Of a DNA stretch of 64,000 bases, positions 28,611-51,190 are shown one piece after another (positions within the stretch are counted from its first letter, which is position 1; every line of letters starts with the position of its first letter). Source of the DNA: Naegleria gruberi (lineage: Eukaryota); NCBI GenBank assembly GCA_000004985.1, contig GG738860.1; one strand, written 5' to 3'. The notes beneath the pieces were generated by a model. It saw only the letters and a program-made list of their open reading frames with translations, was not told where the DNA came from and ran no database searches. A program made the position numbers and the translations under genes.

Positions 28611-28789
28611 TGACAATCTTGTTGAATATTGTTTTATTGTTGTAATTGAATAAAAACTTCATCTATTCATTGAATGATCATTGTGTATTAATGAATAATA
28701 ATAATTAATATTGAATTTAAATTGAAACACGGAAATGAAATTCTAAGATAGTAATTCCGAATACAAAAACAAAGAAAGACAAAACAAAA

Positions 28790-28870
28790 CGTTGAGGATG
28801 GGATTCGAACCCACGCGGATTACTCCACCAACTTAGCAGGCTGGCGCCTTAACCACTCGGCCACCTCAAC
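28790..28870 (-). tRNA. tRNA-Ser (anticodon GCU), class II with long variable arm
   Basis: Minus strand: GTTGAGG TG GCCGAGTGGTTAAGGC G CCAGC CTGCTAA GTTGG TGGAGTAATCCGCG TGGGTTCGAATCCCATCCTCAAC G. It has a 7-bp acceptor stem, GCT anticodon with U33 and A37, and a T-arm identical to eukaryotic tRNA-Ser. It is followed by TTTT. Confidence 0.85.
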
Positions 28871-29154
28871 TTCATGGCTAAACTAAGAAAATACTAAAGT
28901 CATGGTACGACAATCAAACCCTTAATGAACAGCTTCTTTTTCGTATCAACTGTTGAGGTGTTATTGGTTAGATTGTTTAATTGTTCAATACTGATTTAAG
29001 CTGTTTCTTAGGAGTATCACTTATCTTTCATTTGGTGGCCAAAGAATCTGTGTTCAACATACTGCTATAGATTAGATTCAGCCATTCAAATTTCAACAAA
29101 AGAAAGTATTGATTGATACCTCCGATTTCAGATAATATTTAATAAATTGCTGTT

Positions 29155-29820
29155 TTATTGAAGAACCTTCCCACAAGTCAACATGGAATGATCTTTACAA
29201 ACATTAGTTCGTCCATTCAAACTATACGTAAAACTATTAGCACTGCAACTTTCATCCTTCAAATAATAAGACCTTGTCCAAGTTGTTTGATTGCAGGAAA
29301 CCCTTTCGAATTCCTTTCCAGTAACTTGTTCACAATAATTTACATCTTCTCCAGCAATTGAAACCAAATTCCCAGAACAACTATTCTCTGCATCTATATA
29401 TTCAAATGAATAGGTGTACAATAAAGGAACTACAAGTTGTGGAATATTTCCACATCCGACATTTTGCATTCCACATTCATTCTTGTGAAATTTCCAATCG
29501 TAGACAGCATCACAATATTGGCAGTTACTGTCTACACAGTATGTATAGATGGTGGCTGAATCCTTTCCACAAACTGCCTTCATGTATTTGAAATGGGATG
29601 AGCTTTCAAAGTTTTGGAAACAAGTTCCATTTTGTCCATAAACAGGATAGATTTCAATAGCTGAAATAGATTGTTGATTGCATGAATTATCATGGTAGTA
29701 GATGGAGTAGGCGAAAGTGGTTGGTTTTTCGAGGGGTTGTTTTGCATGCAAGAAGGAAATGATTGCAAGAATGATGAAGAAGGTACAGAGGGAATAGTTT
29801 AGTTTCATCATTTTTTTCAA
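29155..29820 (-). CDS. Secreted cysteine-rich protein (221 aa, ~20 Cys), unknown family
   Basis: Signal peptide MKKMMKLNYSLCTFFIILAIISFLHA followed by a Cys-rich mature region (CNQQ...CFQNF...CGKDSATIYTYCVDSNCQYCD...CGMQNVGCGN...). Single ORF. Antisense small ORFs were rejected. Confidence 0.5.
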   Translation of the reverse strand: MKKMMKLNYSLCTFFIILAIISFLHAKQPLEKPTTFAYSIYYHDNSCNQQSISAIEIYPVYGQNGTCFQNFESSSHFKYMKAVCGKDSATIYTYCVDSNCQYCDAVYDWKFHKNECGMQNVGCGNIPQLVVPLLYTYSFEYIDAENSCSGNLVSIAGEDVNYCEQVTGKEFERVSCNQTTWTRSYYLKDESCSANSFTYSLNGRTNVCKDHSMLTCGKVLQ

Positions 29821-30569
29821 GTACTGATGTTCATCTACGCCAAATTAGCAAATATGTGTTCGAATGCCAAATCATGTCCTTCCTTATCATCTCCGTAGAA
29901 GAAGAGGTGTTTTGAAATAATGTCCATGCACAACCACATAGTGGTTCTATTTACGACGAATACCAAGCTTCTTTAACGAATATCCTTGCGAAGAGAAAGT
30001 TATAAATATTACAATACATCATCGCTTCAAAGGGGTTGTGCTTGCTGATATTGAATGATGTTGTATTATTGTCTTGTTGTTGTTACTCCGTTCATTGTCC
30101 ACAGTCAGGAAAAGTATTATAAATTTTTTTCTATATTATTAAATTATTATTTTGACAAAGAGGAGCAAGCAGGAACGAAACAAAACCAACAAAATGTATT
30201 CAATTTAATTGTTCAGGGTAAAGAAGAAAGAAAATTACTTGATATTGATTTTGACTTTTTTATTTAAATGTTTTTGGATTTTTAATTTTTTAAACAAGTC
30301 ACTCTTCTAGGATTATGTAAATATCAAGTTATTGTTGTTAGACTTGATAAATCCGAGAATCATCATTGGACCTGTTCTTTCAAAGTATGAGTAAATATAT
30401 CTTGAATAGTAACTACATGTTGTGTTAAAATTTGTATAAAAACTCTACAAGTGCTTTCGCAAAGTAATCTTAAACTGTACCAGTGATATGTGAAATGAAA
30501 TGGTTAATCAACAAAGATTGTGATCAGTTTCAACACAATCTTCTCCGCATCATTTCTCTAGTTTGATGT

Positions 30570-31334
30570 TTAAGCATTGGTCAATCTAGTCTTCAAGACA
30601 CGATCTTCCAAACAAACACAAAAGCTTGGAATATTGACAGTCTTTGGAAGTGGGCTGTTAATAGCAAAACAATCCCAATCATCTTCTTCTCTATCTTCAT
30701 CATTTACCAATTCAACTTCAATTTCATCACCTCTGACAGCAATAACTTTACCCAATTTACCTTGTAATTGTGGATCGACACTTTGGAGTAAAGCCATTTC
30801 ATCATCAACATTGATGAGGACTGTATCATTCTTCTTGAGTAATCTGCTTGTATTAGTATTAGAAACAAATCTCTTAATAGTTGATGATGAAGAAATAATT
30901 GAAGCACTTCTTGTAGATTGCATCTTCTTTTGCTTGTGAATACCTCTTGCTGTTGTATTATTTGATGATTGCATCATGGACATGAAGGAAATTCCCTGAT
31001 GTGGTTTATAAGATGAGGAGTACATATCCATTGAGGAATCATTATTATTCATCATTTGGTTACCAGTGGCATTAACTCTTTTCAAGAACATTTTGTATTG
31101 CGTTGTTGTTGGTTGCGTTGTTTTTTTTCGATGTGAAAATGTCTGATCGTTTTCCATAAATTTATTGCGTTTGTGCAAGTTCCACAAGCAACTGGCTTCC
31201 GCTGCGTGTTCAAAATCGAGCTTAAAATAGAACTTCAAAAATGTTTTGCTGCATACGGAATTCGTTTGGGCGCCAAAGAATTTGATGAGTGTGGAAAAAG
31301 GATTCCGTGAGAGTGAATCTTTTCTGCAAATCAA
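30570..31334 (-). CDS. Hypothetical protein (S/N/T-rich, acidic C-terminal beta-barrel-like segment); start codon uncertain (internal Mets at MENDQ / MFLKRV possible)
   Basis: 254-aa minus ORF. The C-terminal segment LINVDDEMALLQSVDPQLQGKLGKVIAVRGDEIEVELVNDEDREEDDWDCF looks globular. The remainder is low complexity. No family was assigned. Confidence 0.35.
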   Translation of the reverse strand: MICRKDSLSRNPFSTLIKFFGAQTNSVCSKTFLKFYFKLDFEHAAEASCLWNLHKRNKFMENDQTFSHRKKTTQPTTTQYKMFLKRVNATGNQMMNNNDSSMDMYSSSYKPHQGISFMSMMQSSNNTTARGIHKQKKMQSTRSASIISSSSTIKRFVSNTNTSRLLKKNDTVLINVDDEMALLQSVDPQLQGKLGKVIAVRGDEIEVELVNDEDREEDDWDCFAINSPLPKTVNIPSFCVCLEDRVLKTRLTNA

Positions 31335-31835
31335 AAAGATTGATCATCAATCTTTATGAAGCTATTACAATAATTGATTGTATTATCATTATTCAAATGA
31401 TCAACCACAAAAGATACAGTAAAGGTACCATTCCGAATATCACGACTATATGATTTGGTAAAGGTAGAGATGACTGATAGTTGAACAGCTTTCCATCTCA
31501 ACTGAAATTATCGGAAATTAATCTTCATCCAACAACATTCAATAATATTATTATTGAAAACAGTCTGCTTCATCCACTTTGAAATTAATAGAAACAACTT
31601 CTTCTACAACATTCAATATAATATTGAAAACAGCACTGCTTCATTGCCTTACTTGGTTTGGCTTCATTATAAACGCACTTTTCATTCCCTCACTAGAACT
31701 AGGGCTTTAAGGATTAGAACAGTACAACTATGGTTCATTGTTCGTGTCTCCTCTCCCTAACCTCAATAATGCAGGAATAATAATCCAACAACCAGAAGGA
31801 TAGAACATCAAGAGAAAAAAAGCTTTTGAGAAGAG

Positions 31836-33029
31836 ATGAATTATCTCCTTCAGGGATTTTCAGAAAAATCTTCATCTACTAACCAATCAATAATGAAAAA
31901 CAAGTCAAGAAAGGGGTGGAGCAATGCACTGTTCCTCCTTAACTACTTTATCATCATGATGATAATTTTACAAATATCAACCAATTACTACTGTTTGGCC
32001 ATTCCGAATGACAAGAACAAAACCCCTACATGTAAGAATGGAAGGCTTATTACAAATACCACTACTCCTCAACAATTTGCCTCAACCAAATGTTCATGTT
32101 TTAAGGGATATTCGGGAAGTGATTGTAACATACCAGTTTGTTTTGGATTGAAGGCAAGTTCAAAATCTGTATGTGGTGGCAAAGGTAACTCCAAATGTAT
32201 TGCTCCAGATACATGCATTAAAATCAATGAAGCAACAATCATGAAGCGATTTCAATCCAATGCTAAAGAGGACAGTTCATGTTCCAATCGTGGTCAAATG
32301 AGTAATGGTCAATGCATATGTAGTGAGGGATTCTATGGAGAATCTTGCGAATATTCTAATTGTTATGATACAGCTAGCCAGCTCACTTGTAGTGGAAGAG
32401 GAGAATGCTCCTCTGATAATATTTGCACTTGTAGAGAGAATGATATGTTTGGCGATAGATGTCAATACACACTCCCAGATAAGATTTATCAAAATGATGT
32501 TTGTGGGTCATGTATCATTGTGGCTGGTGTCAGTGGAGATGCTATTCCATCGAAGTATTCACTCTTGAACAATCCTACTGGACTATTTGTGGATGAAACA
32601 ACTGGTTTCATCTTTTTCGCAGATCAAGGCAATGCAAAGGCAAGAGTTCTCACAAGGGATGATACTATCTATTCGATTGCCTCTGTTTCCACACCAACTA
32701 GTATAGCATTCGATAAGAAAACAAGAGATGTCTATATTGGTACTAGAAATGGACTATTCAAATTGAACAGCAAGAGAGAACTCTCTAAATTGAACAGCTT
32801 GTATTGTAGCAGTGTCATTGTTAATGGTCAGGGACATGTTGTGTTTACACAGGGACCATATAACAAGATTTCAAAACTTGTAAATGGTGTGCAAGTTGAG
32901 GTGGCAGGGGATAATGACGGCGAAGGAAAATATGATGGTGACAACAAAGTGGCAACGGATGCAAGTGTCAACAATCCAGCTTATTTGAGCTACCATGCTG
33001 ACTCTGATACAATTTACTTTATGGACAGA
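31836..33029 (+). CDS. N-terminal fragment of a receptor-like protein: signal peptide, tenascin-type EGF-like Cys repeats, start of an NHL-repeat beta-propeller; truncated by assembly gap. Probably the 5' part of the receptor kinase resuming at 43232
   Basis: Begins MNYLLQGF..., with a hydrophobic signal or anchor (WSNALFLLNYFIIMMIILQISTNYYCLA). EGF-like modules follow (CSCFKGYSGSDCNIPVCFG..., CICSEGFYGESCEYSNCYD...CTCRENDMFGDRCQ). NHL-like blades come next (LLNNPTGLFVDETTGFIFFADQGNAKARVL...NNPAYLSYHADSDTIYFMDR). The frame is then cut by the 50-N gap at 33030. Confidence 0.6.
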
Positions 33030-33079
33030 NNNNNNNNNNNNNNNNNNNNNNNNNNNNNNNNNNNNNNNNNNNNNNNNNN
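33030..33079. other. Assembly gap (50 N)
   Basis: A run of exactly 50 N separates the receptor gene fragment from the second 5S/tRNA unit. Confidence 1.
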
Positions 33080-33087
33080 AACTGAAT

Positions 33088-33206
33088 GGCTACGGCCATA
33101 TCACGATGAATGCACCTCATCCCGTCCGATTTGAGAAGTTAAGCATCGTCGAGCCACATCAGTACTGAGGTTGGAGACAACTTGGGAACCTGTGGTGCTG
33201 TAGTCT
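33088..33206 (+). rRNA. 5S ribosomal RNA gene (copy 2)
   Basis: Identical to 22982..23100 (offset 10106 bp). Confidence 0.85.
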
Positions 33207-33723
33207 ATTTAAATTCAACTTTTTAGATGTCGATTTTCAGAACAATTTGAAAGTTCAATAAACTTGTGAATAATTAATGCTTCAAAGCTTATAAAAAGTT
33301 TAACCACAATTATTAATAGATTTTAAATTAATTGAATACATAGAGAGATCAACATTCATCATTCCATAGCAATCACACTGCAATCCAACAACCAAAGGTA
33401 TCAGCAAAAGGCAACTTATGGGTTAGGGTATTCGATTGCTGTGAAGTGGGTACACTAGCTCAGTTGTCTTTTTTTCTATTTCCCAATCAATGAGTGCTTT
33501 TGGAGTATGTTGATACATTTATTATTTACAAACTTTTTTGTTACAAATTTCAATCGAAATGCCTGAGAAATTTTTTAAAATGAAAGTGCCCAATCATTGA
33601 TTATTTTCTCTATGGTTTTAAGAAATGAAACTTTGAAAATTGAATCTTAGCTAGATTACATATAATTTATCATATAATGATAAAATTAAATGTCAAATAT
33701 AGGAGATGGAGTCAAAAATTAAT

Positions 33724-33794
33724 CTCGAGTGCCGGGAATTGAACCCGGGTCGCCAGAGTGACAGTCTGGAATGCTACCACTATACCACACCCGA
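33724..33794 (-). tRNA. tRNA-Asp (anticodon GUC), copy 2
   Basis: Identical to 23618..23688. Confidence 0.8.
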
Positions 33795-34261
33795 TTTCAC
33801 ATGTTGTATCACCAGTAACAGTATTTGTAGTTGTTCAAACGGATTACCATAAAAGGAACCTTAGTGTTTCTTTTTAATATAATTATACTTACATATATGT
33901 ATACCTACTGAGAATGGATCCATACAATCGATTACTCCAACGAACTAAATTTTGAATCTGCTAATTGTCAACAAATGATATTGTTAAACAAAATACAAAC
34001 ACTATGAAATGCACAACTTCATTCTAAACATTGTATTAGAAAAATTGGAAATAGGAAAGAATCGGTAAAATTGTCTCATAGTGATTCTCTCTTGTTTATG
34101 GCCATAAATACTTTTTTGGACAGTTTCGTATGAAATTGGGTTTTGTAATATTTATTTTCTATGACATGTCATGCATAATTTCTTGTACTTGCCATCTCAA
34201 TGGCACACAAGGGTCACAACAAATTTTTTCTTCAAGAGGCACCANCTCCTTCTTGCTTGTT

Positions 34262-37200
34262 NNNNNNNNNNNNNNNNNNNNNNNNNNNNNNNNNNNNNNN
34301 NNNNNNNNNNNNNNNNNNNNNNNNNNNNNNNNNNNNNNNNNNNNNNNNNNNNNNNNNNNNNNNNNNNNNNNNNNNNNNNNNNNNNNNNNNNNNNNNNNNN
34401 NNNNNNNNNNNNNNNNNNNNNNNNNNNNNNNNNNNNNNNNNNNNNNNNNNNNNNNNNNNNNNNNNNNNNNNNNNNNNNNNNNNNNNNNNNNNNNNNNNNN
34501 NNNNNNNNNNNNNNNNNNNNNNNNNNNNNNNNNNNNNNNNNNNNNNNNNNNNNNNNNNNNNNNNNNNNNNNNNNNNNNNNNNNNNNNNNNNNNNNNNNNN
34601 NNNNNNNNNNNNNNNNNNNNNNNNNNNNNNNNNNNNNNNNNNNNNNNNNNNNNNNNNNNNNNNNNNNNNNNNNNNNNNNNNNNNNNNNNNNNNNNNNNNN
34701 NNNNNNNNNNNNNNNNNNNNNNNNNNNNNNNNNNNNNNNNNNNNNNNNNNNNNNNNNNNNNNNNNNNNNNNNNNNNNNNNNNNNNNNNNNNNNNNNNNNN
34801 NNNNNNNNNNNNNNNNNNNNNNNNNNNNNNNNNNNNNNNNNNNNNNNNNNNNNNNNNNNNNNNNNNNNNNNNNNNNNNNNNNNNNNNNNNNNNNNNNNNN
34901 NNNNNNNNNNNNNNNNNNNNNNNNNNNNNNNNNNNNNNNNNNNNNNNNNNNNNNNNNNNNNNNNNNNNNNNNNNNNNNNNNNNNNNNNNNNNNNNNNNNN
35001 NNNNNNNNNNNNNNNNNNNNNNNNNNNNNNNNNNNNNNNNNNNNNNNNNNNNNNNNNNNNNNNNNNNNNNNNNNNNNNNNNNNNNNNNNNNNNNNNNNNN
35101 NNNNNNNNNNNNNNNNNNNNNNNNNNNNNNNNNNNNNNNNNNNNNNNNNNNNNNNNNNNNNNNNNNNNNNNNNNNNNNNNNNNNNNNNNNNNNNNNNNNN
35201 NNNNNNNNNNNNNNNNNNNNNNNNNNNNNNNNNNNNNNNNNNNNNNNNNNNNNNNNNNNNNNNNNNNNNNNNNNNNNNNNNNNNNNNNNNNNNNNNNNNN
35301 NNNNNNNNNNNNNNNNNNNNNNNNNNNNNNNNNNNNNNNNNNNNNNNNNNNNNNNNNNNNNNNNNNNNNNNNNNNNNNNNNNNNNNNNNNNNNNNNNNNN
35401 NNNNNNNNNNNNNNNNNNNNNNNNNNNNNNNNNNNNNNNNNNNNNNNNNNNNNNNNNNNNNNNNNNNNNNNNNNNNNNNNNNNNNNNNNNNNNNNNNNNN
35501 NNNNNNNNNNNNNNNNNNNNNNNNNNNNNNNNNNNNNNNNNNNNNNNNNNNNNNNNNNNNNNNNNNNNNNNNNNNNNNNNNNNNNNNNNNNNNNNNNNNN
35601 NNNNNNNNNNNNNNNNNNNNNNNNNNNNNNNNNNNNNNNNNNNNNNNNNNNNNNNNNNNNNNNNNNNNNNNNNNNNNNNNNNNNNNNNNNNNNNNNNNNN
35701 NNNNNNNNNNNNNNNNNNNNNNNNNNNNNNNNNNNNNNNNNNNNNNNNNNNNNNNNNNNNNNNNNNNNNNNNNNNNNNNNNNNNNNNNNNNNNNNNNNNN
35801 NNNNNNNNNNNNNNNNNNNNNNNNNNNNNNNNNNNNNNNNNNNNNNNNNNNNNNNNNNNNNNNNNNNNNNNNNNNNNNNNNNNNNNNNNNNNNNNNNNNN
35901 NNNNNNNNNNNNNNNNNNNNNNNNNNNNNNNNNNNNNNNNNNNNNNNNNNNNNNNNNNNNNNNNNNNNNNNNNNNNNNNNNNNNNNNNNNNNNNNNNNNN
36001 NNNNNNNNNNNNNNNNNNNNNNNNNNNNNNNNNNNNNNNNNNNNNNNNNNNNNNNNNNNNNNNNNNNNNNNNNNNNNNNNNNNNNNNNNNNNNNNNNNNN
36101 NNNNNNNNNNNNNNNNNNNNNNNNNNNNNNNNNNNNNNNNNNNNNNNNNNNNNNNNNNNNNNNNNNNNNNNNNNNNNNNNNNNNNNNNNNNNNNNNNNNN
36201 NNNNNNNNNNNNNNNNNNNNNNNNNNNNNNNNNNNNNNNNNNNNNNNNNNNNNNNNNNNNNNNNNNNNNNNNNNNNNNNNNNNNNNNNNNNNNNNNNNNN
36301 NNNNNNNNNNNNNNNNNNNNNNNNNNNNNNNNNNNNNNNNNNNNNNNNNNNNNNNNNNNNNNNNNNNNNNNNNNNNNNNNNNNNNNNNNNNNNNNNNNNN
36401 NNNNNNNNNNNNNNNNNNNNNNNNNNNNNNNNNNNNNNNNNNNNNNNNNNNNNNNNNNNNNNNNNNNNNNNNNNNNNNNNNNNNNNNNNNNNNNNNNNNN
36501 NNNNNNNNNNNNNNNNNNNNNNNNNNNNNNNNNNNNNNNNNNNNNNNNNNNNNNNNNNNNNNNNNNNNNNNNNNNNNNNNNNNNNNNNNNNNNNNNNNNN
36601 NNNNNNNNNNNNNNNNNNNNNNNNNNNNNNNNNNNNNNNNNNNNNNNNNNNNNNNNNNNNNNNNNNNNNNNNNNNNNNNNNNNNNNNNNNNNNNNNNNNN
36701 NNNNNNNNNNNNNNNNNNNNNNNNNNNNNNNNNNNNNNNNNNNNNNNNNNNNNNNNNNNNNNNNNNNNNNNNNNNNNNNNNNNNNNNNNNNNNNNNNNNN
36801 NNNNNNNNNNNNNNNNNNNNNNNNNNNNNNNNNNNNNNNNNNNNNNNNNNNNNNNNNNNNNNNNNNNNNNNNNNNNNNNNNNNNNNNNNNNNNNNNNNNN
36901 NNNNNNNNNNNNNNNNNNNNNNNNNNNNNNNNNNNNNNNNNNNNNNNNNNNNNNNNNNNNNNNNNNNNNNNNNNNNNNNNNNNNNNNNNNNNNNNNNNNN
37001 NNNNNNNNNNNNNNNNNNNNNNNNNNNNNNNNNNNNNNNNNNNNNNNNNNNNNNNNNNNNNNNNNNNNNNNNNNNNNNNNNNNNNNNNNNNNNNNNNNNN
37101 NNNNNNNNNNNNNNNNNNNNNNNNNNNNNNNNNNNNNNNNNNNNNNNNNNNNNNNNNNNNNNNNNNNNNNNNNNNNNNNNNNNNNNNNNNNNNNNNNNNN

Positions 37201-40200
37201 NNNNNNNNNNNNNNNNNNNNNNNNNNNNNNNNNNNNNNNNNNNNNNNNNNNNNNNNNNNNNNNNNNNNNNNNNNNNNNNNNNNNNNNNNNNNNNNNNNNN
37301 NNNNNNNNNNNNNNNNNNNNNNNNNNNNNNNNNNNNNNNNNNNNNNNNNNNNNNNNNNNNNNNNNNNNNNNNNNNNNNNNNNNNNNNNNNNNNNNNNNNN
37401 NNNNNNNNNNNNNNNNNNNNNNNNNNNNNNNNNNNNNNNNNNNNNNNNNNNNNNNNNNNNNNNNNNNNNNNNNNNNNNNNNNNNNNNNNNNNNNNNNNNN
37501 NNNNNNNNNNNNNNNNNNNNNNNNNNNNNNNNNNNNNNNNNNNNNNNNNNNNNNNNNNNNNNNNNNNNNNNNNNNNNNNNNNNNNNNNNNNNNNNNNNNN
37601 NNNNNNNNNNNNNNNNNNNNNNNNNNNNNNNNNNNNNNNNNNNNNNNNNNNNNNNNNNNNNNNNNNNNNNNNNNNNNNNNNNNNNNNNNNNNNNNNNNNN
37701 NNNNNNNNNNNNNNNNNNNNNNNNNNNNNNNNNNNNNNNNNNNNNNNNNNNNNNNNNNNNNNNNNNNNNNNNNNNNNNNNNNNNNNNNNNNNNNNNNNNN
37801 NNNNNNNNNNNNNNNNNNNNNNNNNNNNNNNNNNNNNNNNNNNNNNNNNNNNNNNNNNNNNNNNNNNNNNNNNNNNNNNNNNNNNNNNNNNNNNNNNNNN
37901 NNNNNNNNNNNNNNNNNNNNNNNNNNNNNNNNNNNNNNNNNNNNNNNNNNNNNNNNNNNNNNNNNNNNNNNNNNNNNNNNNNNNNNNNNNNNNNNNNNNN
38001 NNNNNNNNNNNNNNNNNNNNNNNNNNNNNNNNNNNNNNNNNNNNNNNNNNNNNNNNNNNNNNNNNNNNNNNNNNNNNNNNNNNNNNNNNNNNNNNNNNNN
38101 NNNNNNNNNNNNNNNNNNNNNNNNNNNNNNNNNNNNNNNNNNNNNNNNNNNNNNNNNNNNNNNNNNNNNNNNNNNNNNNNNNNNNNNNNNNNNNNNNNNN
38201 NNNNNNNNNNNNNNNNNNNNNNNNNNNNNNNNNNNNNNNNNNNNNNNNNNNNNNNNNNNNNNNNNNNNNNNNNNNNNNNNNNNNNNNNNNNNNNNNNNNN
38301 NNNNNNNNNNNNNNNNNNNNNNNNNNNNNNNNNNNNNNNNNNNNNNNNNNNNNNNNNNNNNNNNNNNNNNNNNNNNNNNNNNNNNNNNNNNNNNNNNNNN
38401 NNNNNNNNNNNNNNNNNNNNNNNNNNNNNNNNNNNNNNNNNNNNNNNNNNNNNNNNNNNNNNNNNNNNNNNNNNNNNNNNNNNNNNNNNNNNNNNNNNNN
38501 NNNNNNNNNNNNNNNNNNNNNNNNNNNNNNNNNNNNNNNNNNNNNNNNNNNNNNNNNNNNNNNNNNNNNNNNNNNNNNNNNNNNNNNNNNNNNNNNNNNN
38601 NNNNNNNNNNNNNNNNNNNNNNNNNNNNNNNNNNNNNNNNNNNNNNNNNNNNNNNNNNNNNNNNNNNNNNNNNNNNNNNNNNNNNNNNNNNNNNNNNNNN
38701 NNNNNNNNNNNNNNNNNNNNNNNNNNNNNNNNNNNNNNNNNNNNNNNNNNNNNNNNNNNNNNNNNNNNNNNNNNNNNNNNNNNNNNNNNNNNNNNNNNNN
38801 NNNNNNNNNNNNNNNNNNNNNNNNNNNNNNNNNNNNNNNNNNNNNNNNNNNNNNNNNNNNNNNNNNNNNNNNNNNNNNNNNNNNNNNNNNNNNNNNNNNN
38901 NNNNNNNNNNNNNNNNNNNNNNNNNNNNNNNNNNNNNNNNNNNNNNNNNNNNNNNNNNNNNNNNNNNNNNNNNNNNNNNNNNNNNNNNNNNNNNNNNNNN
39001 NNNNNNNNNNNNNNNNNNNNNNNNNNNNNNNNNNNNNNNNNNNNNNNNNNNNNNNNNNNNNNNNNNNNNNNNNNNNNNNNNNNNNNNNNNNNNNNNNNNN
39101 NNNNNNNNNNNNNNNNNNNNNNNNNNNNNNNNNNNNNNNNNNNNNNNNNNNNNNNNNNNNNNNNNNNNNNNNNNNNNNNNNNNNNNNNNNNNNNNNNNNN
39201 NNNNNNNNNNNNNNNNNNNNNNNNNNNNNNNNNNNNNNNNNNNNNNNNNNNNNNNNNNNNNNNNNNNNNNNNNNNNNNNNNNNNNNNNNNNNNNNNNNNN
39301 NNNNNNNNNNNNNNNNNNNNNNNNNNNNNNNNNNNNNNNNNNNNNNNNNNNNNNNNNNNNNNNNNNNNNNNNNNNNNNNNNNNNNNNNNNNNNNNNNNNN
39401 NNNNNNNNNNNNNNNNNNNNNNNNNNNNNNNNNNNNNNNNNNNNNNNNNNNNNNNNNNNNNNNNNNNNNNNNNNNNNNNNNNNNNNNNNNNNNNNNNNNN
39501 NNNNNNNNNNNNNNNNNNNNNNNNNNNNNNNNNNNNNNNNNNNNNNNNNNNNNNNNNNNNNNNNNNNNNNNNNNNNNNNNNNNNNNNNNNNNNNNNNNNN
39601 NNNNNNNNNNNNNNNNNNNNNNNNNNNNNNNNNNNNNNNNNNNNNNNNNNNNNNNNNNNNNNNNNNNNNNNNNNNNNNNNNNNNNNNNNNNNNNNNNNNN
39701 NNNNNNNNNNNNNNNNNNNNNNNNNNNNNNNNNNNNNNNNNNNNNNNNNNNNNNNNNNNNNNNNNNNNNNNNNNNNNNNNNNNNNNNNNNNNNNNNNNNN
39801 NNNNNNNNNNNNNNNNNNNNNNNNNNNNNNNNNNNNNNNNNNNNNNNNNNNNNNNNNNNNNNNNNNNNNNNNNNNNNNNNNNNNNNNNNNNNNNNNNNNN
39901 NNNNNNNNNNNNNNNNNNNNNNNNNNNNNNNNNNNNNNNNNNNNNNNNNNNNNNNNNNNNNNNNNNNNNNNNNNNNNNNNNNNNNNNNNNNNNNNNNNNN
40001 NNNNNNNNNNNNNNNNNNNNNNNNNNNNNNNNNNNNNNNNNNNNNNNNNNNNNNNNNNNNNNNNNNNNNNNNNNNNNNNNNNNNNNNNNNNNNNNNNNNN
40101 NNNNNNNNNNNNNNNNNNNNNNNNNNNNNNNNNNNNNNNNNNNNNNNNNNNNNNNNNNNNNNNNNNNNNNNNNNNNNNNNNNNNNNNNNNNNNNNNNNNN

Positions 40201-43200
40201 NNNNNNNNNNNNNNNNNNNNNNNNNNNNNNNNNNNNNNNNNNNNNNNNNNNNNNNNNNNNNNNNNNNNNNNNNNNNNNNNNNNNNNNNNNNNNNNNNNNN
40301 NNNNNNNNNNNNNNNNNNNNNNNNNNNNNNNNNNNNNNNNNNNNNNNNNNNNNNNNNNNNNNNNNNNNNNNNNNNNNNNNNNNNNNNNNNNNNNNNNNNN
40401 NNNNNNNNNNNNNNNNNNNNNNNNNNNNNNNNNNNNNNNNNNNNNNNNNNNNNNNNNNNNNNNNNNNNNNNNNNNNNNNNNNNNNNNNNNNNNNNNNNNN
40501 NNNNNNNNNNNNNNNNNNNNNNNNNNNNNNNNNNNNNNNNNNNNNNNNNNNNNNNNNNNNNNNNNNNNNNNNNNNNNNNNNNNNNNNNNNNNNNNNNNNN
40601 NNNNNNNNNNNNNNNNNNNNNNNNNNNNNNNNNNNNNNNNNNNNNNNNNNNNNNNNNNNNNNNNNNNNNNNNNNNNNNNNNNNNNNNNNNNNNNNNNNNN
40701 NNNNNNNNNNNNNNNNNNNNNNNNNNNNNNNNNNNNNNNNNNNNNNNNNNNNNNNNNNNNNNNNNNNNNNNNNNNNNNNNNNNNNNNNNNNNNNNNNNNN
40801 NNNNNNNNNNNNNNNNNNNNNNNNNNNNNNNNNNNNNNNNNNNNNNNNNNNNNNNNNNNNNNNNNNNNNNNNNNNNNNNNNNNNNNNNNNNNNNNNNNNN
40901 NNNNNNNNNNNNNNNNNNNNNNNNNNNNNNNNNNNNNNNNNNNNNNNNNNNNNNNNNNNNNNNNNNNNNNNNNNNNNNNNNNNNNNNNNNNNNNNNNNNN
41001 NNNNNNNNNNNNNNNNNNNNNNNNNNNNNNNNNNNNNNNNNNNNNNNNNNNNNNNNNNNNNNNNNNNNNNNNNNNNNNNNNNNNNNNNNNNNNNNNNNNN
41101 NNNNNNNNNNNNNNNNNNNNNNNNNNNNNNNNNNNNNNNNNNNNNNNNNNNNNNNNNNNNNNNNNNNNNNNNNNNNNNNNNNNNNNNNNNNNNNNNNNNN
41201 NNNNNNNNNNNNNNNNNNNNNNNNNNNNNNNNNNNNNNNNNNNNNNNNNNNNNNNNNNNNNNNNNNNNNNNNNNNNNNNNNNNNNNNNNNNNNNNNNNNN
41301 NNNNNNNNNNNNNNNNNNNNNNNNNNNNNNNNNNNNNNNNNNNNNNNNNNNNNNNNNNNNNNNNNNNNNNNNNNNNNNNNNNNNNNNNNNNNNNNNNNNN
41401 NNNNNNNNNNNNNNNNNNNNNNNNNNNNNNNNNNNNNNNNNNNNNNNNNNNNNNNNNNNNNNNNNNNNNNNNNNNNNNNNNNNNNNNNNNNNNNNNNNNN
41501 NNNNNNNNNNNNNNNNNNNNNNNNNNNNNNNNNNNNNNNNNNNNNNNNNNNNNNNNNNNNNNNNNNNNNNNNNNNNNNNNNNNNNNNNNNNNNNNNNNNN
41601 NNNNNNNNNNNNNNNNNNNNNNNNNNNNNNNNNNNNNNNNNNNNNNNNNNNNNNNNNNNNNNNNNNNNNNNNNNNNNNNNNNNNNNNNNNNNNNNNNNNN
41701 NNNNNNNNNNNNNNNNNNNNNNNNNNNNNNNNNNNNNNNNNNNNNNNNNNNNNNNNNNNNNNNNNNNNNNNNNNNNNNNNNNNNNNNNNNNNNNNNNNNN
41801 NNNNNNNNNNNNNNNNNNNNNNNNNNNNNNNNNNNNNNNNNNNNNNNNNNNNNNNNNNNNNNNNNNNNNNNNNNNNNNNNNNNNNNNNNNNNNNNNNNNN
41901 NNNNNNNNNNNNNNNNNNNNNNNNNNNNNNNNNNNNNNNNNNNNNNNNNNNNNNNNNNNNNNNNNNNNNNNNNNNNNNNNNNNNNNNNNNNNNNNNNNNN
42001 NNNNNNNNNNNNNNNNNNNNNNNNNNNNNNNNNNNNNNNNNNNNNNNNNNNNNNNNNNNNNNNNNNNNNNNNNNNNNNNNNNNNNNNNNNNNNNNNNNNN
42101 NNNNNNNNNNNNNNNNNNNNNNNNNNNNNNNNNNNNNNNNNNNNNNNNNNNNNNNNNNNNNNNNNNNNNNNNNNNNNNNNNNNNNNNNNNNNNNNNNNNN
42201 NNNNNNNNNNNNNNNNNNNNNNNNNNNNNNNNNNNNNNNNNNNNNNNNNNNNNNNNNNNNNNNNNNNNNNNNNNNNNNNNNNNNNNNNNNNNNNNNNNNN
42301 NNNNNNNNNNNNNNNNNNNNNNNNNNNNNNNNNNNNNNNNNNNNNNNNNNNNNNNNNNNNNNNNNNNNNNNNNNNNNNNNNNNNNNNNNNNNNNNNNNNN
42401 NNNNNNNNNNNNNNNNNNNNNNNNNNNNNNNNNNNNNNNNNNNNNNNNNNNNNNNNNNNNNNNNNNNNNNNNNNNNNNNNNNNNNNNNNNNNNNNNNNNN
42501 NNNNNNNNNNNNNNNNNNNNNNNNNNNNNNNNNNNNNNNNNNNNNNNNNNNNNNNNNNNNNNNNNNNNNNNNNNNNNNNNNNNNNNNNNNNNNNNNNNNN
42601 NNNNNNNNNNNNNNNNNNNNNNNNNNNNNNNNNNNNNNNNNNNNNNNNNNNNNNNNNNNNNNNNNNNNNNNNNNNNNNNNNNNNNNNNNNNNNNNNNNNN
42701 NNNNNNNNNNNNNNNNNNNNNNNNNNNNNNNNNNNNNNNNNNNNNNNNNNNNNNNNNNNNNNNNNNNNNNNNNNNNNNNNNNNNNNNNNNNNNNNNNNNN
42801 NNNNNNNNNNNNNNNNNNNNNNNNNNNNNNNNNNNNNNNNNNNNNNNNNNNNNNNNNNNNNNNNNNNNNNNNNNNNNNNNNNNNNNNNNNNNNNNNNNNN
42901 NNNNNNNNNNNNNNNNNNNNNNNNNNNNNNNNNNNNNNNNNNNNNNNNNNNNNNNNNNNNNNNNNNNNNNNNNNNNNNNNNNNNNNNNNNNNNNNNNNNN
43001 NNNNNNNNNNNNNNNNNNNNNNNNNNNNNNNNNNNNNNNNNNNNNNNNNNNNNNNNNNNNNNNNNNNNNNNNNNNNNNNNNNNNNNNNNNNNNNNNNNNN
43101 NNNNNNNNNNNNNNNNNNNNNNNNNNNNNNNNNNNNNNNNNNNNNNNNNNNNNNNNNNNNNNNNNNNNNNNNNNNNNNNNNNNNNNNNNNNNNNNNNNNN

Positions 43201-43231
43201 NNNNNNNNNNNNNNNNNNNNNNNNNNNNNNN
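34262..43231. other. Assembly gap (8970 N)
   Basis: Continuous N run. All giant ORFs reported across it (34130..43276, 34159..43266, 34171..43431, 34197..43394, 34200..45386, 34232..43288) are poly-X artefacts. Confidence 1.
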
Positions 43232-46200
43232 TACTGGAACAATTGCCAAAGTCTTTTCTGCTCCATACGGTGTTAAAAGCTTCCACAAACTTGAGAATGG
43301 TAATTTTATTTTCGCAGAGAAAAATTATCCTAGAATTGCCCTTTTCAAGACCAATAGCAGCAAGATTATCTACTTGGCTGGTCAATACGAACAAGGTTAC
43401 GATCCAATCGTTATTTCTGACAATGTGTTAGCAACCACAACAAGTGTGAATCATCCTCGATCACTCTATGTAAAGAATGGAGAGCTCTATTTTGCAGATA
43501 CCTACAACTCTCTCGTGAGAAAAATCACCCTCTCAACAGGAGTTCTCTCAACCATTGCTGGTAATGGAGGTGAGCGTTTTTATGGGGATGGTGGATTGGG
43601 AACGAGTGCTTCTTTGAACTATCCATATGGAATTCACTTACATACTGATGGTTCTATCTACATTGCCGATACTTACAATAGTAAGATTAGAAAGTTAGAC
43701 TCTTCCAAAAAGATTAGCTCAGTTGCTGGAAATGGATATTTGGGATATTCGGACAATACTCAACCATTGAGAGCTTCATTCAATTTGGCAGTAAGCGTTC
43801 TCATTAACAACGTAGGGGACATGTACATTTCAGATTATGCAAACAATGTAATTAGAAAGATGAGCTCCTCTGGTGCCATTACAACTATTGCTGGACAAGC
43901 AAAGATTTCTGGTTTTGCTGATAGTTTAAATGCAAAGACTGCTCTATTGAATGGTCCATTTGGATTATATTATCAGGAATCCACACAAACTCTCTTTTTT
44001 GCTGACAGTCTCAATGGTAGAATAAGAAAGCTAACAAAGAATGGAGCAATTGAAACAGTTCTTGCTTCAATTAACGATCCAAGAGAAATCTCATTCCACA
44101 CAACCCATGGTCACATGTACTTTACTTCTGGAGGTGACCAAACCATTAAGGTTCTATTCTCCAATGGTACTCTTTCTGTGCTCAACATTCCAAAAGATTA
44201 CTACATTGGTCTCCATGTTGATTCCACTAATGATTATCTCTATGCAAGTGGTTATACATACATTTATAGATTTTCCATTGCAGGAGGTAGTAGCATTGAT
44301 CACAATCAAACCGATCCAATCATCGATAACATTTCTAAGAATTGTACTAAGGGATGTGAAAAGGGTGAATGTGTGAATGGAACTTGCGTCTGTAAGGAAA
44401 ATTATGGAGGTGAAATTTGTGATAGGCCAATGTGTTTTGGAAAATTGAGCAATGAGAGTGGTGTGTGTAATACTCACGGAGTTTGTCTGCAACCAAACGT
44501 TTGCTACTGTTACGGAAATTGGGAGGCCGAAGAATGCACCCAATGTAAGAGTGGATTTACTGGTTCTAATTGCAGAACCTGTGCCGATGGTTTTGTTGGA
44601 GAATTGTGTAATATCCCTATTTGTTTCAACGTATTTGCTAATGAATCAAACGTTTGTTCTGGACATGGTTCTTGCAAATCTCCAAACAATTGTTCATGCT
44701 TTGGAAATTGGGAGGGAGAAAGTTGTCAATCTTGTAAGGAGGGATACACTGGCTCAGAATGTGACACTCCAGTTTGTTTCGGGTTCAGNNNNNNNNNNNN
44801 NNNNNNNNNNNNNNNNNNNNNNNNNNNNNNNNNNNNNNNNNNNNNNNNNNNNNNNNNNNNNNNNNNNNNNNNNNNNNNNNNNNNNNNNNNNNNNNNNNNN
44901 NNNNNNNNNNNNNNNNNNNNNNNNNNNNNNNNNNNNNNNNNNNNNNNNNNNNNNNNNNNNTGGGTTGGAGATTGTGTGATTCCTGTCAAGCTGGATACAG
45001 TGGTTCAAATTGTGATATTCCTGTTTGTTTTGGATCAAGCGTTGAAGGAGATGGTTCTTTGGTTTGCTCAGGGCACGGTAACTGTTCAGGACCAGATATG
45101 TGCACTTGTAACGAAAACTGGTCTGGAAATGATTGTTCCACTTGTAGAGAAGGTTATTATGGAGAAGACTGCTCCTCATGTACACCTGGATTCAGTGGTG
45201 AGAGATGTGACATTCCTTCATGCTTTGGTATTTCAGCAAATGCTAGTAATGTATGTTCTGGAAATGGTTATTGTTTCAGTCCAGATTTGTGCTCCTGCTT
45301 TGAGAATTGGAAGGGTGAAAGTTGTAATCAATGCAGTAGCGATTACATTGGTGAATTGTGTGATATTCCGTCCTGTTTTGGAGTGAATGGTAATGATAGA
45401 TCAGTTTGTTCTGGTCATGGCTCTTGTATTACCCCATCCAATTGTTCTTGTTTCAATAACTGGGAAGGAGCAATGTGTGAAAATTGTCCAACAGGTTTCT
45501 CTGGAGATGACTGCAAATCCTGTGACGAAAGTCACACTGGAGAGGGATGTGATGTTCCAATCTGTTACGGCCTTGCAGCTAATAATGAAAGTGTTTGCTC
45601 TGGAAATGGCAAGTGCATTGAGTCCTCTGTATGTGTTTGTTCTGGTTTTTGGACTGGAGCTAATTGTGATACTTGTCCAGAAAAGTATTCAGGATCGGCT
45701 TGTGATGTGCCAGTTTGTTATGGAGTAAGCGCTAACGATTCTATGGTTTGCTCTGGACATGGTTCTTGTGTTGCACCTTCTCAATGTTTTTGTGAAGGAA
45801 GATGGGCTGGAGAATTGTGTGATTCCTGCGTGGCTGGATATAATGGTTCAAATTGTGAAAATCCAATCTGCTTTGGAGAATTCAACACCTCTATTGTTTG
45901 TTCTGGTCATGGTTTGTGCTCAGCACTAGATGTTTGTGTGTGTAGCGAGCAATGGGCTGGAGAAACTTGTGGCAAATGTAATTCTGGATATTACGGAATA
46001 ACTTGTGAGCTTTCTTGTGATCCACAAATAGTGAAACCATCTCTCACAATCAAGCAAGGTTCAATAATTTCCTATGTGATTGGAACTTCTATTGCTTTGG
46101 AACCAGAATTGACAATTCCATTGTGCTATGCCGGTCATTTCAGCTCCATTAGCTATGGATATGCTTCTGATTTCTTTAACCAATCTCAACTGGTTCAGGT

Positions 46201-47305
46201 TGATAAATTCCTTGTCATTGGCGAATCAACCAAGAGCTCTGGAACTTTAATTTCTAACGAAGGTGAATATTCATTCAAGGTTATTGCTACACTTGGCAGG
46301 TTGGAAATTTCCACTTCCTTTGAATTTATTGTCAAGTCCAATTTGGCTTCGCTCACTCTTGATTTCAACATTCCAAATATGCTCACTCAATCCTTTGAAA
46401 AACCTTTGGAATTTGAAGTTAAAGCCTCTGATCCAAGCTTCCCTAGTGATTTAACTGAGGGTGATTTATCACTCAATTGTTGGAATCAAGATAATCAATT
46501 GGTAGAAAAGTTGGTTGACACTGTTTTCAATCATACTATTACAGTCTCAAAACAACTCAATCCAGGGCAATATGTTTGTGAAGCAACATTCAAGAAGGAT
46601 TCCAGAGTTATTACCAAGTCAATTCAGGTTGTCCTTGTTGATGTCTCTTCATCAAATGTACTCACTGTTACTCTTAAATTGGAAGGTCAAAATCCAACTT
46701 GGGTAAATCCAACAAAAGATTTGACCATATCAGCTGATATCAAAGAATCTATTGGTCCAAATGTTGTGTATGATTGGAAATCTCCATTCCAACCAATGGA
46801 TACAACTGTCTCGAATCAATTAGTTATTCCATCCAGTCAATTAGCTCTTGGAAAGAGGTATAACATTTCTCTGATTGTTACAGATGGAAGTAAGAAGGGA
46901 TTTGGATTTATTTCCTTCAAGACCTATAGTCCTCCTTCAATGGGATCATTCTCTGTTTCTCCTCTCTTTGGTTACTCTCTCACAACCAATTTCATGCTAT
47001 CTGGTGGTGTTGATTGGATTTCTTTCAATCAAGATGTCTTGACATTTACATTCATTTATAGAAGTGTAGGTTCTTTGGCATGGAAATCATTGGCTGAAAG
47101 TTCTGTTCAAACATCTCTCAATACTACTCTCCCTTCAGGAACATGGGAAACTTCAGTTTCAGTTTCCGATTCATTCTTATCATACACAATCTATGATAAA
47201 CCAGTCATAGTCCAGGTGAATACTACAGATTTAACTGTTGCTCAATTGAATTATGTTGCCTCTAATCCAATTACTCCATCAGTCATTTCTTCATTGATTA
47301 GTTAT
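43232..47305 (+). CDS. Ectodomain of a receptor-like kinase: NHL-repeat beta-propeller, array of ~13 tenascin-type EGF-like modules (interrupted by a 172-N gap), REJ/PKD-like beta-rich region; 5' end lies in the gap
   Basis: The open frame starts right after the gap. NHL blades: SLYVKNGELYFADTYNSLVRKI, GIHLHTDGSIYIADTYNSKIRKL, GDMYISDYANNVIRKM, GLYYQESTQTLFFADSLNGRIRKL. A periodic ~60-aa Cys module follows: CDxPxCFG...N.S.VCSG.G.C..P..C.C...W.G..C..C..G..G..C. The frame continues after the N-run (44789..44960) through a Cys-poor beta-rich region with many N-glycosylation sites, up to 47305. Confidence 0.65.
44789..44960. other. Assembly gap (172 N) inside the EGF-repeat array
   Basis: N run within tandem near-identical EGF-module coding repeats, a likely assembly break in a repeat. 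Confidence 1.
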
Positions 47306-47328
47306 GTGAGCAGTGGTTCTTCTTCCAA

Positions 47329-49486: not shown

Positions 49487-49560
49487 TGCCTCCCTTGGGA
49501 ATCGAACCCAAGACCTCTGTCTTACTAGGACAGCGCTACTGCCAACTGAGCTAGGAAGGC
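49487..49560 (-). tRNA. tRNA-Thr (anticodon AGU)
   Basis: Minus strand: GCCTTCC TA GCTC AGTTGGCAGT AGC G CTGTC CTAGTAA GACAG AGGTC TTGGG TTCGATT CCCAA GGGAGGC A. It has a perfect 5-bp anticodon stem, U33, AGT anticodon, A37, a canonical T-arm, and a 7-bp acceptor stem (one G-U). A TTTT run follows. Confidence 0.8.
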
Positions 49561-49632: not shown

Positions 49633-51190
49633 TTAAAGATTCAATGAGTCTCTTATTGCTTTGTTTTGCTCTTTTAAAACTTCAAGAGATCCATCCATTG
49701 ACAAGAGCTCTTCATCTACATCCTTTGTCTTTTCAATATCCTTCTTTACCATTTTGTGCATGTCACTAGCAAACATTTTGGATAATCCTGCAACAATACC
49801 CTTTGGAACAGAACCTTTCATATCCATGAAATCAAAAATGTAATATCTGGTCGAGTTTGTTGTTTGTCTCTCAATAACAACAGCTGTGTAGAGCGACACT
49901 CGAATAAAATCCTTCTTGATTGGTGAGTCATCGTGAGCTGAAGGCTTTGAAATAATTACAAATCTATCAAATTCATCCGTTTCCTCATTATATTTATCAG
50001 GTATGATGGTTCTAGCCATGACAATTTCTCTCTTAGTGAATGGGAACCCAATCTATTAGTTTTAAGTTTTACAAATAGTATTATACATAGTAAACTTAAT
50101 CACCCAACCAAATTGAATTTTGAAAACTTACATCCAACTGATGGTAAATAATAGTATTAGGATATTCAATTCCCTTTTCATGATTAATCTTTAAATATTC
50201 CAATTGGAATTTTCTCTTATAGAATGAGTTAATCTTCTTTTCAAATGATTTCTTAAAAAATAGATTGAAAATACTCTTGTGATCTCCACTCATCAATCCA
50301 GTAAAACAAATCACTGGTAGGGCTTCTTCACCTAAATTCATATAATAATTATTAACACTGGTAAGTGTTTTGGTTCCAGTCTTTTCATCTGCCACTTTCC
50401 ACCTGTTGCTATCGTTCAATGTTGATATTAATTCTTTCAAAATTTCATAATCCTTTGGAGTGACATAGATTGAGGTATTATCAATTAGGGGTCTATCTTT
50501 ATCCTTGATGGGTGTACTCTTTGCTATTTCCTCTATAAAGCTATCACTATCACTCGAATCCTGTGAAATGCTACTGTCTGATCTATCCAATGCTTTTTTG
50601 GTCCCTAATTGTTCAAGTAATTGTGACGGAGAGTCCTTGTATTCTGGCTTTTTAGCTTCCTTCTTTAAAAAGGATTTAAATTGTTCAGATTCGGTAAATC
50701 TTGGAAAATTATCTTGTTTCAATTCGGAAAAGATGACGTTCTGAGCTTTTTGGAACAAGTCCGATGGACATTCTATTAATTCAACTGCTTTTCCTTCATT
50801 AAATTCTTGAGTTAAACTCCAAATCTTTAGAATATCTTTCCTAATGGTCATTGACAAGTTTAATTCATGTTTGGCACTCACAACAATAAAAGTATTCATA
50901 ATTTCCACAGCCATATCAAATCTATTCTTGTCCAATCTTGTTTTTTGATACTTTTCAACCATTTCATAAAACATGAAAGGATCTTCATTCAAATTATCCT
51001 TTAAAAACTTTCGGAAACAATCACGAGCACTTTCATGATCAAAAACTGCTTCAATATTGAATTTATATCGTTGAATGAGAGAATCGTCCAAACCAACTGT
51101 TGGTTTCTGCGGTTGGCCTGACAGGTTATTCAACATTTTTTTCTTATTAGTTTCGGATGAGATAACTATTGTCTTCCAACACAATACCAC
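49633..51190 (-). CDS. RGS-domain protein with C-terminal START-like domain, 2 exons (paralog B, inverted relative to 20838..22362)
   Basis: Exon 1 is 51190..50132 (ends ...YHQLD at a GTAAGT donor). The intron 50131..50053 has a TAG acceptor. Exon 2 is 50052..49633 (IGFPFTKREIVMARTIIPDKY...). The RGS core YKFNIEAVFDHESARDCFRKFLKDNLNEDPFMFYEMVEKYQKTRLDKNRFDMAVEIMNTFIVVSAKHELNLSMTIR is identical in protein to paralog A. Exon-2 START-like sequence: YYIFDFMDMKGSVPKGIVAGLSKMFASDMHKMVKK. Confidence 0.65.

Follow-up and report, generated by a model that had tools for sequence, protein, structure and literature searches.

Does a second 5S rRNA/tRNA-Asp unit reside inside a receptor-kinase gene of Naegleria gruberi, or was it brought there by the assembly? 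The question arises in part of JGI scaffold_16, in a stretch of 64,000 nucleotides that we analyzed as a whole and refer to as the window; its positions 22,900-44,000 correspond to about 438,900-460,000 of the scaffold. The first-pass annotation had noted that a receptor fragment breaks off at a 50-N gap, that similar sequence resumes after a gap of 8970 N, and that a 5S/tRNA-Asp contig is all that separates the two gaps. Three explanations were offered without ranking: the erroneous scaffolding of a repeat contig into the gene, a unit residing in a large intron, and two receptor paralogs with the unit between them. We favor as the probable explanation that the small contig (C2) is a redundant, misplaced duplicate of positions 22974-24155, and that the receptor gene hosts no second Pol III unit. 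The layout of the locus is as follows:

1-33029: contig A, the upstream contig; its end is also the end of receptor fragment f1.
33030-33079: gap of 50 N between contig A and C2.
33080-34261: contig C2, 1182 bp, carrying a 5S rRNA and a tRNA-Asp gene; duplicate of 22974-24155.
34262-43231: gap of 8970 N between C2 and contig F.
43232-44788, + strand: contig F, 1557 bp, which holds receptor fragment f2.

The remaining N in the window are at 34245 (1) and 44789-44960 (172). As the first-pass annotation had stated, the only called bases between the 50-N and 8970-N gaps are those of C2, and they are 100% identical to an upstream copy (copy 1). The alignment of C2 to 22974-24155 was gapless over 1182 bp, and 1181 of the 1181 called bases matched; the sole “mismatch” is C2’s N at 34245, opposite a C in copy 1. 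This N is the single ambiguous base of the window and lies 17 nt from the end of C2, as fits a contig assembled from few reads. Hence the whole of C2 repeats sequence already in the assembly, with zero bases at either end that are absent from copy 1. The flanks of copy 1, on the other hand, run into unique genes, one encoding an RGS-domain protein upstream and a 1452-aa ORF (24252-28610) downstream, and this segment is probably the true origin of C2. The following features were identified in the two copies:

22974-24155: copy 1 segment, within contiguous unique sequence.
22982-23100, + strand: 5S rRNA gene of copy 1 (Rfam RF00001, 105.4 bits, full length).
23618-23688, - strand: tRNA-Asp(GTC) gene of copy 1 (ARAGORN; Rfam tRNA, 57.1 bits), convergent with the 5S gene.
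33088-33206, + strand: 5S rRNA gene of C2 (full length, 105 bits, the same score as in copy 1).
33724-33794, - strand: tRNA-Asp(GTC) gene of C2 (ARAGORN and Rfam).

The 5S matches span model positions 1-120 and exceed the RF00001 threshold of 38 bits, and the tRNAs carry the GTC anticodon, which identifies the genes as 5S rRNA and tRNA-Asp(GTC). A T5 run follows the 5S gene on its 3' side (read in the identical copy in C2), and the first base of C2 lies only 8 nt before the gene. Scanning metagenomes with the 5S core recovered one contig of 1964 bp (L001) with a 5S sequence 96% identical; it has neither the tRNA nor a common flank and is, therefore, silent on linkage or synteny.

The 5S genes of N. 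gruberi form a dispersed family of 279 BLAST hits that is unlinked to the rDNA plasmid (PMC3369914). Both copies are catalogued, at scaffold_16 438985 and 449091 (copy 1 being the hit at 438985-439096 in Table S1), and their Table S1 coordinates are 10,106 bp apart (PMC3369914). They are also the only entries in that table with a similarity value of 0.745762712 (PMC3369914), which marks the 5S gene of C2 as the copy 1 variant rather than a generic family member. Copy 1 resembles the rest of the family in being an ordinary 5S gene that stands alone and has a T-run downstream; the pair differs from it in that the identity covers 1 kb of non-5S flank. The shared similarity value and the flank identity are more easily reconciled with double counting of a single locus than with two members of the family. 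Further, approximately 20 of the 279 hits are on tiny scaffolds numbered 400 or higher (PMC3369914), which makes orphan 5S mini-contigs a common occurrence in the N. gruberi assembly. As a counterpoint to an artifact, some 279 dispersed copies make additional real copies plausible in principle.

The sizes of the two gaps (50 N and 8970 N) fit the placement of C2 at the copy 1 locus. Copy 1 ends at 24155, which is 8874 bp before the last base of contig A (33029); the 8970-N gap exceeds this distance by 96 bp. For a gap size drawn from 0-10 or 0-40 kb, we estimate the probability that the two values match by chance within a few hundred bp at ~1-4%. We infer a contig layout logic of the assembler that could have produced this arrangement. 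C2 would be a small, low-quality draft contig copying the 5S/tRNA-Asp locus at 22974-24155, to which read-pair links would have assigned the scaffold coordinate of copy 1. With contig A (1-33029) already holding that coordinate and contigs output by start position, C2 would have been placed after contig A. The negative gap from contig A to C2 (about -10 kb) would then have been swapped for a minimal 50 N, which from the layout arithmetic appears to be the floor value for negative gaps, and the distance from C2 to contig F printed as estimated, 8970 N. The true gap in the receptor gene would be ~100 bp (roughly 2-370 bp) and would fall inside one NHL beta-propeller. The scheme links four direct observations: the identity, the gap arithmetic, the split within one blade and the intron that the layout forces on the public gene model. 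Two counterpoints attach to it: the emergence of a separate C2 contig from reads identical to contig A is left without explanation, and the start of C2 8 nt before the 5S gene could mark a real duplication boundary.

We examined the receptor sequence on both sides of C2, which comprises the following fragments:

31836-33029, + strand: f1, with an N-terminal signal/TM segment, EGF modules, three complete NHL-type blades and strands a and b of a fourth.
43232-44788, + strand: f2 (contig F), with an orphan strand (TGTIAKVFS), a closed six-blade NHL propeller, one blade-like repeat and EGF modules.
44963-47329, + strand: f3, with EGF repeats and a REJ domain (Pfam); 100% match to XP_002678784.1.
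47329-49434, + strand: f4, with a stalk, a TM segment and a protein kinase domain (Pfam Pkinase, 3e-44), in a different frame from f3.

Together they describe an unusual receptor architecture, EGF-NHL-EGF-REJ-TM-kinase. The f1 reading frame is open through the last base of contig A, and its residues 1-376 are identical to XP_002678784.1. The AlphaFold model of f1 (pLDDT 87) has strands up to residue 186 of 188 and stops after strands a and b of the fourth blade, in agreement with the first-pass annotation that the fragment ends in the middle of an NHL blade. The NHL nature of f1 stands by its repeat pattern, homologs and structure model, but not by Pfam, which at E<=0.01 identified EGF domains only. 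Also as annotated, NHL sequence resumes after the 8970-N gap: contig F codes in frame from 43233 and matches Pfam TEN_NHL/NHL, and its AlphaFold model (pLDDT 85 overall, ~95 for residues 12-320 and <50 for residues 1-11) leaves the TGTIAKVFS strand outside the closed six-blade propeller that follows. An orphan N-terminal strand (CIIVAGVSG), blades 1-4 and the blade-like repeat at residues 321-360 of contig F may together form a first propeller. Further downstream, the f4 stalk shows homology to the sequence that follows the REJ domain in the paralogs P0107 and P0103, and the candidate GT..AG introns enumerated for the 47329 frame break were too numerous to be informative.

The repeat consensus of the blades (Y.aD-xxNxxIRKvxxx-GxItTxaG) suggests that the “...IYFMDR” end of f1 and the TGTIAKVFS strand plausibly share one blade from which 10 residues are missing, and the reading frames demand a missing length of 2 mod 3. 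A blade HMM, with weak scores, also allowed TGTIAKV to align as strand c, another register that leaves almost nothing missing and sets the minimum missing length at 2 nt and not firmly at 29 nt. Counting of blades, in turn, fits one or two missing blades (~150-370 nt) better than exactly 96 nt. The ends of f1 and contig F plausibly belong to the same blade of one NHL domain in compatible frames, and the models point to a single split domain from which some 1-120 residues, rather than 10 kb, would be missing. We found no DNA overlap between the ends of contigs A and F, so their continuity rests on the register of the protein repeats. If C2 is an artifact, the gene would read continuously through “...SDTIYFMDR”, 1 to ~120 residues, and then “TGTIAKVFSAPYGV...”.

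The REJ-family paralogs P0103-P0112 have no NHL domains and are, therefore, unusable as a ruler for the receptor gap. Word-indexed homolog searches with f1+f2 and with f4 returned neither a self match nor a close ortholog, and the number of junction-spanning residues was thus not obtainable from them. A metagenome scan for the end of f1 gave no matches, and searches by exact protein match for this locus in other assemblies (1452-aa ORF, 221-aa ORF, RNR2 and P0102) returned no record.

The public gene model treats everything between the two receptor fragments as an intron:

32965-43317, + strand: “intron” of NAEGRDRAFT_66049, GTGTCA...TCGCAG, 10,353 nt, holding both gaps and C2.

If this were correct, a true second 5S/tRNA-Asp unit would lie inside a spliceosomal intron of ~10 kb. 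The deposited order of the scaffold, the GT...AG sites used by the model at 32965 and 43317, and the dispersal of 5S genes over ~279 genome sites are all in keeping with such a nested unit. Among exon joins, only that across 32965-43317 yields the first 700 residues of XP_002678784.1. However, the annotated intron removes open blade-coding sequence on both sides: the reading frame passes the annotated donor and continues for 65 nt to the end of contig A, and on the contig F side it begins 86 nt before the acceptor. Both splice sites cut beta strands that AlphaFold modeled at pLDDT >90, and there is no GT dinucleotide in the last 36 nt of contig A. The sites on either side of the insert do not, in light of these models, look like genuine exon-intron boundaries. 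The length of the annotated intron is also out of line with the two confirmed introns of the window (52 and 79 nt, a local sample only), being ~130-200 times longer. A nested unit would, moreover, leave the 8970/8874 agreement as a coincidence and the 100% identity across non-genic spacer unexplained. With the blade reading frame open to both contig edges, splice sites through confidently modeled strands and confirmed introns this short, we consider an intron-hosted unit very improbable and the 10-kb intron of the public model probably not real. If true, it would mean that Pol III genes are hosted in the intron of an otherwise short-intron protist.

Two complete tandem receptor paralogs would place f1 in the first, contig F onward in the second and the 5S/tRNA unit in between. 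In favor of this arrangement, the modules concerned (NHL, EGF and REJ) are repetitive in nature, and N. gruberi has an expanded REJ/EGF family of at least 8 paralogs. Yet the remainder of the first paralog, from the NHL to the kinase region and no less than 6 kb long, would need to fit in the 50-N gap before C2. The modules are also split between the two sides: f1 has N-terminal modules only and lacks the C-terminal ones, and contig F, f3 and f4 have C-terminal modules only, with no start or signal sequence. A second receptor-like sequence was not found elsewhere in the window. Given this complementary distribution of modules, we regard the two-paralog arrangement as scarcely credible.

A variant that the first-pass annotation did not name is a real, recent tandem duplication of ~10.1 kb (unit from 22974 to ~33080) that was collapsed by the assembler. 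The order would be unit 1, unit 2 and contig F: a truncated 5' copy of the receptor, then a genuine second 5S/tRNA-Asp, then a second version of 24156-33029 filling the 8970-N gap, with the intact receptor running on into contig F. The end of f1 would, in that case, adjoin AACTGAATGGCTACGG. Such a duplication predicts the same arithmetic (gap = 8874 bp plus a small remainder) and accounts for the stop of contig A at 33029, for the defined start of C2 8 nt before the 5S gene behind a minimal gap, and for the 100% identity. What it fails to deliver is the junction: the 5' end of C2 has no f1-like bases, the 3' end of contig A has no bases of the 5S flank, and junction reads should have fused the two contigs. 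Identical reads from the second unit should, in addition, have merged into contig A rather than yield a contig of 1.2 kb. In drafts of this kind, a redundant mini-contig is more common than a perfectly identical tandem duplication of 10 kb. We judge the duplication unlikely; if 5S-seeded, it would hint at dispersed 5S genes as duplication breakpoints in Naegleria. Taking this duplication and the ~10-kb Pol III-hosting intron together, it is doubtful that a second unit is real within the transcribed span of the receptor gene. The lack of unique sequence in C2, its possession of the window's only ambiguous base and the relation 8970 = 8874 + ~96 make wrong scaffolding the best supported of the three explanations initially proposed, with the large intron and the two paralogs both disfavored.

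The main value of assigning C2 to copy 1 is a correction of the annotation, without wider biological consequence. If C2 is an artifact, scaffold_16 of the N. gruberi reference would be ~10.1 kb too long at the receptor locus, and a 5S gene in the catalogue of 279, as well as a tRNA-Asp gene, would have been counted twice. The public protein XP_002678784.1 (NAEGRDRAFT_66049, D2VB11_NAEGR) would carry a fictitious intron of 10.35 kb and would have lost from its NHL propeller ~50 encoded residues plus the unsequenced ones. Receptor modeling, Pol III gene counts and intron lengths in Naegleria would all be misled.

The arrangement can be compared with known systems in which 5S or tRNA genes appear in unusual settings. 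The tRNA arrays of Entamoeba contain linked 5S/tRNA repeat units, and N. gruberi likewise has a 5S gene with a tRNA gene no more than ~0.5 kb away, in a unit that the scaffold contains twice. Unlike those arrays, the N. gruberi copies are not arranged head to tail but lie 10.1 kb apart in the scaffold, and one is probably spurious. In animals, introns of Pol II genes have been described as hosts of nested Pol III genes, chiefly tRNAs. The locus as deposited, with a 5S and a tRNA gene within an annotated intron of a protein-coding gene, has the same appearance; however, its “intron” spans assembly gaps, is >100 times longer than the two confirmed introns of the window, and has splice sites that cut coding beta strands. 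The locus can also be compared with the stacked mini-contigs that create false duplications in Sanger-era WGS scaffolds. These usually derive from allelic haplotypes and show some divergence, whereas C2 has none. As in those cases, however, C2 is bounded by gaps and wholly identical to nearby sequence, and it sits behind a minimal placeholder gap where it lengthens the scaffold and breaks a gene model.

In the scaffold as deposited, two gaps in the receptor-kinase gene (31836-49434) isolate a single contig, C2 (33080-34261), enclosed by the first and third N runs listed here with the Pol III genes and the gap downstream.

22982-23100, plus strand, 5S rRNA gene of copy 1, full length, 105.4 bits
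23618-23688, minus strand, tRNA-Asp(GTC) gene of copy 1, convergent with the 5S gene
33030-33079, first N run, 50 N
33088-33206, plus strand, 5S rRNA gene of C2, full length, 105.4 bits
33724-33794, minus strand, tRNA-Asp(GTC) gene of C2, convergent with the 5S gene
34245, second N run, a single N inside C2
34262-43231, third N run, 8970 N
44789-44960, fourth N run, 172 N

A BLAST search of C2 against the window returned one gapless match of 1182 bp to 22974-24155 (copy 1, inside contig A, 1-33029), with C2's own N, a C in copy 1, as the sole difference. Every base of C2 is also present in copy 1, and the sequence reads a T5 run after each 5S and tRNA-Asp gene on its own strand. All coordinates that the first-pass annotation gave for the second 5S/tRNA unit, which seemed to it to lie in the receptor gene, are correct. 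Copy 1 runs without a break into unique sequence on both sides: upstream lies an RGS-domain gene, and 97 nt downstream a 1452-aa ORF begins. C2 carries the sole single-N call in ~54.8 kb of called sequence. C2 is probably redundant, and we consider it fairly likely that the genome has no such second unit. All 5 tRNA genes in the window (23618, 28790, 33724, 49487 and 54313; Asp twice, Ser-GCT, Thr-AGT and Trp-CCA) lie on the minus strand, the two 5S copies on the plus strand.

The JGI Naegr1 assembly has 279 5S BLAST hits, including a scaffold_16 pair (438985-439096 and 449091-449202) separated by 10,106 bp (PMC3369914 Table S1). This is the exact offset of the window copies (33080 - 22974), which identifies the window as scaffold_16 of the Sanger draft, an assembly of 1977 contigs in 784 scaffolds (PMC6125883). 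Only the two scaffold_16 entries have the similarity value 0.745762712, indicating that the 5S of C2 is specifically copy 1's variant, and tiny scaffolds with numbers from 400 upwards account for ~20 of the 279 hits, so 5S-bearing orphan mini-contigs are common in this assembly (PMC3369914 Table S1). Database look-ups for other assemblies of the locus and metagenome scans found nothing usable. The 5S core scan matched a 1964-bp JGI metagenome contig (L001, Ga0247722_10036048) with a 5S at 539-657 (minus strand) 96% identical to Naegleria 5S. It has neither a tRNA near its 5S nor further similarity to the window, and probably comes from an environmental heterolobosean.

The receptor gene is split into four pieces, listed with the two introns of the window that were confirmed, each by an ORF that stays open when joined and by a position conserved in paralogues.

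31836-33029, plus strand, f1: N-terminal hydrophobic segment, EGF modules, NHL-type blades
43233-44786, plus strand, F: NHL blades, then EGF modules
44963-47329, plus strand, f3: EGF repeats and REJ domain, 3' of the 172-N gap
47329-49434, plus strand, f4: stalk, TM segment and protein kinase, in another frame than f3
21846-21897, plus strand, confirmed intron, 52 nt
50053-50131, minus strand, confirmed intron, 79 nt

A full HMMER scan recovered the public model of the locus, P0102 (XP_002678784.1 / EFC46040.1 / NAEGRDRAFT_66049 / D2VB11_NAEGR, 2331 aa). The word-indexed protein search had given no self hit for f1+f2 or f4 despite this 100%-identical protein, and its negatives are to be weighed accordingly. 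Exon reconstruction joins 32964 to 43318 across an intron of 10,353 nt (32965-43317, GTGTCA...TCGCAG) that encloses both gaps and C2; the deposited annotation therefore already makes the 5S/tRNA unit intronic. The f1 ORF, however, stays open 65 nt past the annotated donor, to the last base of the contig, and F is open 86 nt ahead of the annotated acceptor. In confident AlphaFold models built with homologue alignments, the NHL part of f1 (pLDDT 87) has three whole blades of four strands each and, of a fourth, strands a and b, stopping two residues short of the contig end. F (pLDDT 85; ~95 at residues 12-320) folds as a closed six-blade propeller over residues 12-320, outside which residues 1-11 (TGTIAKVFSAP) form an orphan strand. 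The annotated 32965/43317 sites cut coding beta strands in these models, the confirmed introns have GTATGT/GTAAGT donors, and the proposed intron is >100 times longer than either. As modelled, it does not appear credible, and the same boundaries and length make a unit truly intronic or inserted in the receptor gene, an option left by the first-pass annotation, very improbable. Two complete receptor paralogues with the unit between them are hardly to be expected, because at least 6 kb of gene would have to fit the 50-N gap and the fragments have complementary N-terminal and C-terminal content.

Across 31836-49434 the receptor combines EGF, ~11 NHL blades, ~14 EGF modules, REJ, a GPS-like stalk, a TM segment and a TKL-type kinase. 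Pfam scans of the N. gruberi REJ/EGF paralogues P0103, P0105, P0106 and P0108 found no NHL or kinase domain, and the sole other NHL-kinase found (P0038, N. gruberi) is without REJ; the architecture looks like a lineage-specific domain fusion. Contig F (43232-44788), just 1557 bp long, has a gap at either end (8970 N and 172 N), so the NHL/EGF region is poorly assembled in general; the public model also bridges the 172-N gap by an intron ('...ECDTPV|SGYSGSNC...'). It crosses a reading-frame break at 47302-47363 (f3 stop TGA 47330-47332; f4 open from 47302) by a 35-nt 'intron' (47329-47363, GTGAAAGA...GGATAG) that is not AT-rich and is shorter than both confirmed introns. The paralogues P0107 and P0103 have, after REJ, a region homologous to the f4 stalk, so f3 and f4 belong together; what separates them may be a very short intron, a pseudogene lesion or a draft error of 1 nt.

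The whole region is flanked by two RGS-domain genes that are inverted paralogues (20823-22359, plus strand; 49636-51196, minus strand), with 74% nucleotide identity over ~1.25 kb and introns of 52 nt and 79 nt at a matching position. Each adjoins a Pol III gene (5S at 22982; tRNA-Thr at 49487-49560). Farther along lie a leucine-rich-repeat gene (ORF 56419-57531, Pfam LRR_6/LRR_8) with an internal tandem repeat at 56419-57120 (minus strand; 72-bp period, ~80-87% identity among copies) and an intronless RNR2 ORF (58599-59588) 100% identical to NCBI 'predicted protein [Naegleria gruberi]'.

How much receptor is missing between f1 and F can be estimated from the NHL blade consensus (PxGxaxDxxGnxYxaD-xxNxxIRKvxxx-GxItTxaG). 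In this register '...NNPAYLSYHADSDTIYFMDR' and 'TGTIAKVFS' belong to one blade, as its front and its last strand respectively, and 10 residues are absent between them; the f1 and F frames fit only if the missing length is 2 mod 3. Because hardly any residues would be missing in an alternative register permitted by a small blade HMM, and the blade count fits better with one or two extra blades, we estimate the missing part at 1 to ~120 residues (2 to ~370 nt). The scaffold layout gives a second value. Copy 1 ends at 24155, 8874 bp before contig A does (33029), and C2 is followed by 8970 N; an agreement within a few hundred bp would arise by chance in an estimated ~1-4% of cases. If C2 had been placed at copy 1's scaffold coordinate and the contigs then printed by start coordinate, in the order A, C2, F, a gap of ~-10 kb would have resulted between A and C2 and been swapped for a placeholder, which the 50 N matches, and the C2-to-F gap would be the sum of 8874 and the true gap between A and F. 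On the observed length, this true gap comes to 96 bp, within the range that the protein repeats gave independently. A collapsed tandem duplication of ~10.1 kb (unit 22974 to ~33080) would yield the same arithmetic and account for where contig A stops and for the start of C2 8 nt ahead of its 5S gene, but it comes without any junction sequence, and reads of an identical second unit would be expected to merge into contig A; we regard it as unlikely.

If C2 is redundant, the practical value of the result is to correct the scaffold length, the 5S and tRNA counts and gene model NAEGRDRAFT_66049. Pol III genes nested inside introns are known in other organisms. Of their defining features, true splice boundaries and a credible length of the intron were tested at this locus, which showed neither; the closest known system is the false duplication, or redundant mini-contig, of a draft scaffold.
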